In this document: one piece after another, positions 6,001 to 9,000 of the stretch
How the letters are laid out: every line of letters starts with the position of its first letter
Position numbering within the stretch: position 1 is the stretch's first letter
Virus record (IMG/VR): IMGVR_UViG_2869953405_000008
Coordinates: 1-21,533 of that record
Direction: 5' to 3' (one strand)
Length of the DNA stretch: 21,533 nucleotides
From: a virus
Taxonomy: Duplodnaviria; Heunggongvirae; Uroviricota; Caudoviricetes
Position numbers: made by a program

Positions 6001-9000
6001 AAAAAAGCAACAGCGTATTTTGCACAGGAGTCGCTGAAAAATACGCGTTAATCGAACAATGGCGACAACAATTTCCCATTGAAGCGATGTGTCAGGTATT
6101 TGGTGTATCCAGGAGCGGTTATTACAACTGGGTACAGCATGAACCCTCAGACAGAAAACAAAGTGATGAGCGGCTAAAACTGGAGATTAAGGTGGCACAT
6201 ATCCGCACTCGCGAAACATATGGAACCCGGCGGCTCCAGACGGAGCTGGCAGAGAATGGCATCATCGTTGGTCGTGACCGACTGGCACGTCTTCGTAAGG
6301 AGCTAAGGCTACGCTGTAAGCAGAAACGCAAGTTCAGAGCGACTACGAACTCGAACCACAATCTGCCAGTTGCGCCAAATCTGCTGAACCAGACGTTCGC
6401 TCCTACAGCACCAAATCAGGTCTGGGTGGCGGACCTGACGTATGTTGCCACACAGGAGGGATGGTTGTACCTCGCTGGCATCAAAGATGTTTATACGTGC
6501 GAAATTGTCGGCTACGCCATGGGAGAGCGCATGACAAAAGAGCTGACAGGTAAAGCCCTGTTTATGGCGCTCAGGAGCCAGCGCCCACCTGCCGGGCTAA
6601 TCCACCACTCTGATCGAGGTTCACAGTACTGCGCATACGATTACCGGGTCATACAGGAGCAGTCTGGTCTGAAAACATCAATGTCGCGTAAAGGTAACTG
6701 TTACGACAACGCTCCGATGGAAAGCTTCTGGGGAACGCTGAAAAATGAGAGCCTGAGCCACTATCGTTTTAATAACCGGGATGAAGCCATCTCAGTAATA
6801 CGGGAATACATTGAGATTTTCTACAATCGTCAGCGTCGTCACTCTCGTCTGGGGAATATCTCCCCGGCAGCCTTCAGGGAAAAATATCATCAGATGGCTG
6901 CTTAAAAAAAGAACAAATGGTAGTGTCCGCTATTGCCAGTACACCTCAGTTAGTCAGCTTCTTATCGAACTTGAGCTGAAGGATCTTAAAACAAGTTTCC
7001 ATAGTGCTCCTGGATTTTCTCTTTTTGGACATTGACGTCTCCACTGGTTTAAACACGGCAATGGAGACTGTGGTGAAAAGAGTTAATTCCCGGAGTGACT
7101 GGCGAATTCCAATCAATGATCGGAAGTATGCCAAATCGTGATCGATTGTGATGCCAAACTGTGATCGGAGATGGATGCCAAATCATGATCGATTCGAATG
7201 CCAAACTGCGATCGATTCAGATGCCATTTTGCAATCAGCGCCAGAACAGCAGCTGACAGGCCGTATTTGATTTTTGCGCTCATGGATATTTATCAGGATG
7301 CTACCAATGAAAGATACTGGAAAGCCAACTGCAAAAAGCTAACAACCCGTAATCGAGTTATCAGAACTGTTAATTTTTATGGTATACCGCGCCTCTGAAC
7401 AGGGGCGCGTTTCTGGCAACAGCTCGTCCCCTTCACATAACCCGGCAGCAACATCCAGGAAGACCTGTCTGATGCTCCTTCTGGCTGCTGCCTCATAAAA
7501 CTCCAGCGCGGCACCTTCAACACGGTCCAGCGAGATGTCCAGGTCAAAAATTTCACCGTCAAAGCGTTTTTTGTCCCGTAACGCTAAAGTTACCGTAACT
7601 TTATTCTCAAAATTGCGGATCCCTTTCACAATCAGTTCATAGTTTTGAGTCATTGAATTACTCTCCCCGTGCAGCCTTACGACGGTCCTCTCTGATTTTG
7701 AAATACAGGTTAGTCAGATATGTCAGCAGCCCAAACAGCAGACTCCCCAGCACGCCTATTGCCGCCCACTGAGACGGGGAAACCCTGTCCAGCAACTGCA
7801 GGAACCAGTAGCCCGTTCCCACCGCTGACGTGGTGTATGACACACCTGTTGTGATTTTTTCCATCTGGTACATACCCCGTCTCCCGTTATCCGGAAGCTG
7901 ACAACAATAAAAAAAGCCACCAGTTAAGTACTGATGGCTCTGATAACTCATGCAGGCATCTCAGACGACCCACTGACACTACCGGTGAGTTTAACGATAC
8001 CTTCCATTTGGCTGGCTCACTTTTTATGATGATGCCGGTGCATTTATCTCCAGCACCAGACTTTCTATCTCAACGCCATACGCTGCATTTTTGGTAATAT
8101 CCGTCAGCGTCAGCGCATTCAGCCCCAGTGTCAGACTGTCTTTTATGACCTGGAATGCCGGGCCAGCCACTCCATTCAGTTTCGGAGTAACCGTGGCACT
8201 GCCGGCGGTGAACACCAGCTCCAGCGTCAGCCAGTCGTTACTGTAATTCCCGAACTCGCCCAACTTTGTGTTTCCTGCTTTCTTGTGATGCATCAGATTC
8301 AGTTTGCCGTCTGTGGTCTGGGTGAAGAACGACATCAGGAACGGGTTACCAGTCCCGGTCATCGCCACGACGTCAGGTAACGCTACATCGGTATACAGAT
8401 AAATTCCCAGACCGAACTGGTTGTTGGTCAGTGCGCCTGACAGTCGAAACTTACAGCTCAGTCTGCCACCCCGTGTCAGCAGGGAGACTGCGTCATCCAC
8501 CGGGCGCGTCAGGGACCAGGCTTTATTGCTCTGCTTGGTGATCTTAAATACACCATCTGACAACTGAACTCCGCCATTCTTAATGCTCCAGCCCTGCGCA
8601 GCAGCGTCTCCGGCTGTCGGCAACAGGGAGATTGTGCGTATGGATGCATCTTCAGACGGCCCCGATGGCGTGTCGCCGCCGGGCGAGGGTTTGATTTCCG
8701 GTGCCTTACCACTAATGAAGGCTAAGGTGCGACCGGCTACGTTCAGAATAGCAGTTGCCATACGATCGGGAATAATGCCACGACGCGCCCATGAGCTGAA
8801 ATGCGTCGGGCGATTTGATGATACCCAGTTTTTGTTCGTTCGGGATGCCGAACCGTAATAACCAGACCCGGCAATATCAGGATCTTCTGACGGGTTGTTT
8901 GTCGGTGTATTAACTCCGCTACCATCGGTCATAAAGGGAACAAAATAAATCTGCTGGGATTCTTTACCTTTATATGCACCATATACCACTTCATATTGCG

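Follow-up and report, generated by a model that had tools for sequence, protein, structure and literature searches.

The locus analysed here raises the question of why an endolysin gene should break off near its start and be followed directly by an array of short tandem repeats. It lies in a lambdoid prophage, within a stretch of 21,533 nucleotides (hereafter, the window) of IMG/VR virus record IMGVR_UViG_2869953405_000008. An earlier interpretation, made without database searches (the sequence-only reading), had left the array unexplained, had not recognised 6949-7233 as IS DNA, and had offered iterons of a replication origin, a remnant of a cos/pac region or slippage as candidate explanations. 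We reject these candidates, both on the identity of the array to a known element and on its rarity in phage records. The array is the left TIR region of ISSso4, an element of the IS21 family. It is almost certain that positions 6949-7233 are a solo left end of ISSso4; the element probably jumped into the endolysin gene between nucleotides 50 and 51 (codon 17), and an IS600-anchored deletion would have come later. The coordinates of the relevant features are collected in the table.

Table. Features of the disrupted lysis region and of the three IS600 copies, in window coordinates.
Feature	Position	Strand	Remarks
Tail-fibre assembly gene, after the tail-fibre remnant	4867-5430	-	phrog_136, PF02413
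C-terminal remnant of tail-fibre gene, ~95 codons	5396..5684	-	phrog_454, phrog_5454, phrog_381 'tail fiber protein'
IS600 copy 1, 1264 bp	5685-6948	+	orfA 5749-6051, orfB 6087-6905
Left, istA-proximal 285 bp of ISSso4 (IS21 family): TIR, istA leader, 18 istA codons	6949..7233	-	
First 18 codons of istA (METCFKILQLKFDKKLTN)	6949..7002	-	identical to L001 IstA N-terminus
L-TIR repeat array of ISSso4	7094..7233	-	units numbered from IS tip
L6 repeat, degenerate	7094-7117	-	
L5 repeat	7118-7139	-	
L4 repeat	7140-7162	-	
L3 repeat	7163-7186	-	
L2 repeat	7187-7209	-	
L1 repeat	7210-7233	-	
Chimeric 56-aa ORF (endolysin N-terminus read on into IS end)	7113..7283	-	
5' remnant of lambdoid SAR-type endolysin gene	7234..7283	-	100% identity to mEp460 endolysin
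DUF1327/YdfR-family gene, intact	7339-7653	-	PF07041 E=5e-39; 99% identity to mEp460_055
Phage-21-type holin, 71 aa, intact	7658-7873	-	PF04971 'P21 holin S' E=9e-33; phrog_9876, phrog_20 'holin'
IS600 copy 2	10412-11675		flanks GGA/GGA duplication
IS600 copy 3	18041-19304	-	flanks TAG/TCC in IS orientation, no duplication

The endolysin reading frame, MSAKIKYGLSAAVLALI..., is opened by a minus-strand ATG at 7283, and what is left of the gene is its first 50 nt, namely MSAKIKYGLSAAVLAL plus 2 nt of codon 17. Alignment to the intact lysis cassette of mEp460 located the breakpoint at 7233/7234: the 5' end of the mEp460 endolysin gene (L003 1736-1788) is 100% identical to window 7231-7283, and there the identity stops. 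The mEp460 endolysin is a protein of 177 aa that carries PF00959. When it was used as a tblastn query against the whole window, its residues 1-18 gave the sole match, which bears out the earlier proposal of a truncation after about 17 codons and leaves no intact endolysin frame in the window. With the break at codon 17, the endolysin is without any lysozyme catalytic domain (PF00959). A tblastn search with the mEp460 Rz protein returned no match anywhere in the window. The tblastn and Pfam results thus agree with the sequence-only reading that the holin and the YdfR-like gene were kept and that the endolysin body and Rz were lost. Because the holin gene is kept but the endolysin body and Rz are gone, there is no working lysis cassette; that of this prophage is dead.

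A separate observation on the late region is that tRNA genes for Arg(tct) and Arg(tcg) and a tRNA with a CAT anticodon lie at window 12120-12369 (-), between a DNA methylase gene and a gene for a 617-aa DUF1737/SASA esterase (8024-9877). This layout of tRNA, methylase and esterase genes is typical for Stx-type lambdoid late regions.

Within the array, TRF reported a repeat at 7128-7226 with a period of 23, 4.3 copies and 73% matches, and also a repeat at 7103-7214 with a period of 47. The motif ATGCCAAAYYGYGATCG, when up to 3 mismatches are allowed, occurs 4 times, all in the array, where 0.41 occurrences are expected; none of 100 shuffles reached 4. Anchoring the units on the core TGGCAT yields five good units and a degenerate sixth, in which the core reads TGGAAT in the window. 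The repeat length of about 23 bp given previously is therefore correct, but the count of four and a half copies is not. On the minus strand, the cores lie at 7221, 7198, 7175, 7151, 7128 and 7106, at a spacing of 23, 23, 24, 23 and 22 bp. The units keep the core TTTGGCAT...CGATC, and their variation falls at fixed spacer positions. In a scan with the Rfam gathering thresholds, no RNA family matched 6900-7300.

The origin of this sequence is evident from its matches. Positions 6949-7233 are identical to 3501-3785 of the ISSso4-bearing locus L001 at 285 of 285 positions, up to the terminal nucleotide of the IS. We also conducted a megablast search of window 6906-7340 against 5426 complete Escherichia coli genomes, in which 6949-7233/7234 had many 100% matches. 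Among these are H15-H22, which adjoin genes annotated 'IS21-like element ISSso4 family transposase'; the name ISSso4 is taken from the way RefSeq annotates these E. coli copies. On the minus strand, the ISSso4 end at 7233 reads 5'-TGCAAAATGGCATC. The match to L001 ends at ...GATGCCATTTTGCA, and past this point L001, L002 and the window each have a different flank. Similarly, the tip ...GCCATTTTGCA is common to eight reference ISSso4 copies, and the flanks diverge in every copy. The sequence-only reading had also considered that the repeats might be native 5' coding sequence of some other known gene; they are indeed native to a known element, but they are non-coding and lie upstream of istA.

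Little of the element is left. The istA reading frame ends in a TGA directly after codon 18, supplied by the IS600 end, and the stub has no istA body, no istB and no right end, with 285 of ~2639 bp remaining. Since only the first 18 istA codons remain, the window holds a fragment of ISSso4 and no functional member; the stub is dead and cannot transpose by itself.

A search for further occurrences of the array alone (7094-7233) found 1822 matching places in 1351 of the 5426 E. coli genomes, as well as 308 matching plasmid records, which come from Escherichia, Salmonella, Shigella, Klebsiella and other genera. There is a 100% match on a 214-kb plasmid of Shigella sonnei. Elsewhere, the array sits beside istA on chromosomes and plasmids that are unrelated to phages. 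Matches in phages are confined to 3 of 50,697 records, where they fall in every case within a feature annotated 'transposase, partial', and no link of the array to phage packaging or replication regions was found in these records. As an additional point, E. coli O157/O111/O121 chromosomes (H75-H83) have many unannotated matches to array positions 13/16-110 at ~92% identity, and these are probably solo ends of a related IS21-family element.

We then considered the joint between the endolysin gene and the element. The native coding strand reads ...GCG CTG ATT GCT GCA GGC, versus ...GCG CTG AT/T GCA AAA TGG CAT in the window, where the slash marks the joint. The ISSso4 tip (TGCA...) starts at 7233, which corresponds to nucleotide 51 of the endolysin CDS, and the junction is thus 7233/7234; it had been correctly seen that the endolysin runs into the repeats, but the junction had been placed at about 7236. 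Because bases 7231-7233 (TGC on the minus strand) are common to the native endolysin and the IS tip, the last unambiguous endolysin base is 7234 (nt 50, inside codon 17). A joint exactly at the terminal nucleotide of an IS is the signature of a transposition event. The array does abut the break, as previously described, but the reading frame does not stop there and instead continues as a 56-aa ORF to 7113. A Pfam scan found no domain in this chimeric ORF, which is a by-product of the insertion and hence an artefact.

Intact ISSso4-like copies, which indicate what has been lost, are 2639 bp long and have TG...CA tips, the right tip being TGCGTATTCCGCTC; 8 copies agree in these tips. Members of the IS21 family carry istA (HTH, DDE/rve and Mu-transposase C-terminal domain) and, after it, istB for an AAA+ helper. 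The reference copies encode IstA, of 511 aa (rve PF00665; Mu-transposase C-terminal PF22483, Mu-transpos_C_2), and IstB, of 251 aa (IstB_IS21, PF01695). At their left end, TGGCAT cores lie at 8, 31, 54, 78, 101 and 123 from the tip, and the right end (L002) has three inverted copies of the left-end repeat unit, with cores at 7, 30 and 54 from the tip. IS21-family elements are flanked by short target-site duplications (4-8 bp), and 5 of the 8 ISSso4-like copies examined have one, of 5-7 bp; judging from the flanks of L002 and L012-L017, the duplications are 5 bp (AGGAA), 6 bp (ATCTGC, ATGATG) or 7 bp (CCTGGTG, ATCACGG). As a side observation, the ISSso4 copy in L001 is 2592 bp long and has lost R2 and R3 through a 47-bp deletion between short TATTCGA direct repeats (L001 1194-1240), with only the terminal R1 left. 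A target-site preference of ISSso4 was also considered, as the top megablast matches run 3-30 nt past the tip into ATCAGC-like flanks. These flanks are not evidence of a preference, because ranking by alignment length selects them, and other ISSso4 copies have flanks unrelated to ATCAGC.

The TIRs of IS21 contain multiple direct repeats, L1-L2 and R1-R2, and integration by IstA requires two complete repeats (Spinola-Amilibia et al., PMC10122671). In the cryo-EM structure of IstA with DNA, the 23-bp separation of repeats favours a supercoiled wrap, and IstA integrates two left ends in vitro (PMC10122671). The array is thus the L-TIR of ISSso4, and by analogy with IS5376 and IS21 its repeats are putative IstA-binding sites. 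Repeats L1-L5 and the degenerate L6 would then be sites for IstA subunits that synapse both ends, and a spacing of 23 bp would set successive sites about two helical turns apart, which would favour a supercoiled wrap. The earlier suggestion of protein-binding sites was accordingly right in spirit, although the presumptive protein is the IstA transposase and the sites are not phage iterons.

The other side of the stub is bounded by IS600. The window has three IS600 copies, with at least 99.9% identity among them, and the right end of copy 1 cuts the ISSso4 stub at 6948/6949. This copy lies to the left of the array, as had been noted, but the distance from its end is 145 bp to the degenerate sixth unit, or 169 bp if counted to the fifth, rather than about 180 bp. 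Its flanks, AAT/GTT, confirm that there is no 3-bp target duplication, and copy 1 therefore marks a rearrangement or deletion junction. On its far side, copy 1 abuts the tail-fibre remnant. As this remnant lies on the same strand as the lysis genes, the gap is best explained by a colinear deletion with IS600 at the junction. Missing are the remainder of ISSso4, the endolysin body, Rz, and the genes for terminase, head and tail. Copy 2, with its duplication of 3 bp, is a simple insertion, and loci of the S. sonnei ATCC 29930 type retain the empty site (L006 about 6872-6876). We rejected an inversion between copies 1 and 3, since their flanks, AAT/GTT and TAG/TCC, do not pair as reverse complements.

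Two further observations concern the surroundings of these copies. Matches to the STnc100 sRNA family lie on either side of IS600 copy 2, at 10100-10309 and 11854-12043 on the minus strand. Near copy 1, a tail-fibre-assembly gene on the plus strand (4305-4838) faces a second one on the minus strand (4867-5430), the regions 4249-4591 and 5108-5449 have 68% inverted similarity, and related loci contain a 60-aa resolvase/invertase remnant near this gene pair. The facing pair looks like a decayed invertible tail-fibre segment.

The same disruption is found in other genomes. The exact 56-aa chimeric ORF occurs in 196 blocks of a public collection, and the contigs examined include S. sonnei chromosomes. 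IS600 is at the same position in 8 of the 8 listed places of this ORF. These places represent two allelic forms, A and B, with a common sequence on the opposite side of the locus that includes IS600 copy 3. Form A (L004, L005, L007, L008 and L010) matches the window over 17.3 kb at 99.96% identity or more. The value is 99.98% over 17.3 kb for L008 (CP109775.1), which is an assembly from a paper on S. sonnei and apparently represents strain CIP 106347. In form B (L006, L009 and L011, of which L009 is CP026802.1, S. sonnei ATCC 29930), the endolysin stub, the ISSso4 stub and IS600 are identical to those of the window. Past IS600, form B has an IS21 truncated in istB, and then the tail genes Z, U, V, G, T, H, M and L. 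It is without IS600 copy 2, and it keeps 250 bp (L006 1734-1983) that are missing from the window at 16567/16568. Given these differences, form B would be the earlier and the window the later stage of IS600-anchored erosion, and the two look like steps in the erosion of one S. sonnei prophage. The window itself is presumably a piece of S. sonnei chromosome. We also observed that the truncated IS21 is inserted just upstream of tail gene Z (region 11600-13420 of L006, L009 and L011), and that in form B one IS600 lies between remnants of two different IS21-family elements. The 250 bp kept in form B overlap a small ORF of the 'Rem' type (PF27490).

Neither the window nor any of the related loci contains the right end of ISSso4 or the expected 5-7-bp duplication of endolysin sequence. 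A complete ISSso4 in this endolysin was found in none of the 5426 E. coli genomes, where no match covers 80% or more of 6906-7340. Moreover, a 29-mer across the endolysin/ISSso4 junction had 0 exact matches in genome_contigs, which is probably a matter of sampling, because this collection holds one genome per species. Stepwise erosion of the locus fits the documented expansion of IS elements in S. sonnei, whose repertoire includes IS600, IS21 and ISSso4 (Hawkey et al. 2020, PMC7373316); ISSso4 is among the 12 IS of S. sonnei 53G (PMC7373316).

It might seem natural to regard the repeats as phage DNA, i.e., as origin iterons or terminase-binding cos/pac sites, given that the array comes directly after the lysis genes, which is the place of cos in lambdoid phages, and that its repeats are regularly spaced and resemble protein sites. 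However, the array forms one continuous stretch with the end of ISSso4, to which it is 100% identical, and it adjoins istA in non-phage DNA, while the few matching phage records all place it under 'transposase, partial'. In mEp460, moreover, the endolysin continues after codon 17 and no repeats are present. We therefore attach almost no probability to a phage function of the repeats. Local replication slippage at the break point, giving rise to a minisatellite or VNTR, would fit the head-to-tail arrangement and the imperfect units (73% matches in TRF). However, independent ISSso4 copies from different genomes all have the array in the same copy number and with the same sequence. The conserved core, the variation restricted to fixed spacers and the presence of the same unit, inverted, at the other end of the IS are properties of binding sites and not of slippage, which is thus exceedingly improbable as well.

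A different possibility concerns how the joint arose. An intramolecular transposition of ISSso4 (leading to an adjacent deletion or inversion), or another IS-mediated rearrangement, could have moved a pre-existing left end beside codon 17. Neither the right end, nor a target duplication, nor an allele with the intact insertion was found, and the absence of a target-site duplication from 2 of the 8 reference copies (L014 and L016) indicates that such events happen. On the other hand, simple insertion is the commonest outcome, and the IS600-anchored deletion fully accounts for the lost right end. Because that end and the 5-7-bp duplication are gone, the locus itself does not distinguish the two routes, but on balance we consider a rearrangement unlikely. 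Under either route, the array is the left end of ISSso4 and the joint is a transposition joint.

We therefore favour a simple insertion as the original event. According to this history, ISSso4 would have inserted within codon 17 of the prophage endolysin gene, at nucleotide 50/51, and thereby have split the gene, and the right-end junction of the complete insertion would read ...GAGCGGAATACGCA and then GCTGATTGCTGC. Later, IS600 would have come to sit inside ISSso4, 18 codons into istA. A deletion anchored on this IS600 would then have extended as far as the tail-fibre gene, with loss of what remained of ISSso4, the endolysin body, Rz and the genes for packaging, head and tail. It would have come about either through recombination of two IS600 copies with each other or as an IS600-adjacent deletion.

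With this explanation the apparent mystery of the locus is gone, in that such an array belongs to the textbook features of IS21-family ends. Annotations should mark window 6949-7233 as a remnant of the ISSso4 left end, and the 56-aa ORF in many public S. sonnei records should be recognized as a chimeric artefact. The two S. sonnei alleles provide a small marker of stepwise prophage decay. It is also conceivable, though we think it very unlikely, that the orphan left end, with its five intact putative IstA sites, is not inert and is bound in trans by IstA/IstB encoded by complete ISSso4 copies, either at other places in the S. sonnei genome or on pINV. If so, it could act as a transposase sink, or, given the in vitro integration of two left ends by IstA (PMC10122671), it could form a pair with a further end, left or right. 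Such pairing would bring about new deletions or inversions, or mobilise the prophage DNA alongside. By analogy with the accessory sites of Mu or Tn7, the six left and three right repeats could be regulatory.

A few other features of the window were recorded. The window starts inside an IS1 copy (positions 1-378), and at this place related loci have an IS1 transposase gene (L004 16906-17603) next to trpA-trpB-trpC. Upstream of a pRha-type antirepressor ORF there are Rfam matches to isrK and to C4 antisense RNA (window 733-918, plus strand), and a match to the sok antitoxin RNA lies beside a hok/gef gene (window 17026-17201, minus strand).

Every element of this locus is already known, i.e., the terminal repeats of ISSso4 and IS21, IS600, the lambdoid holin-YdfR-endolysin module and IS-driven decay in Shigella. 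The stub in the window has the same terminal nucleotide, six-repeat left-end array and IstA N-terminus (18 aa) as ISSso4. Like the TIRs of IS21 and IS5376 (PMC10122671, PMC11208146), the ends of ISSso4 have TG...CA tips and direct repeats spaced by 23 bp, upstream of istA. However, the sequence of the repeats differs from that of IS21 and IS5376, and ISSso4 has five to six repeats at the left end and three at the right end, versus the two that are typical of those elements ('usually at least two'). This number and asymmetry are mildly notable, but they are a general property of ISSso4 and not of this locus. The lysis genes follow the order holin, DUF1327/YdfR, endolysin of mEp460 and Qin-type systems, and the first 17 codons of the endolysin remnant are identical to those of the mEp460 endolysin and the Qin-type, YdfQ-like SAR lysozymes (PF00959). 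Unlike these endolysins, the remnant is without a catalytic domain, and Rz is gone too. Overall, with its nested IS elements and its IS600-anchored deletion, the locus is routine and represents ordinary prophage decay in S. sonnei. Nested IS600, IS21-family and IS1 elements, copies without a target-site duplication at deletion junctions, and variation from strain to strain are all shared with the IS-driven decay described for Shigella (PMC7373316), from which the locus does not differ in substance and of which it is one more example.
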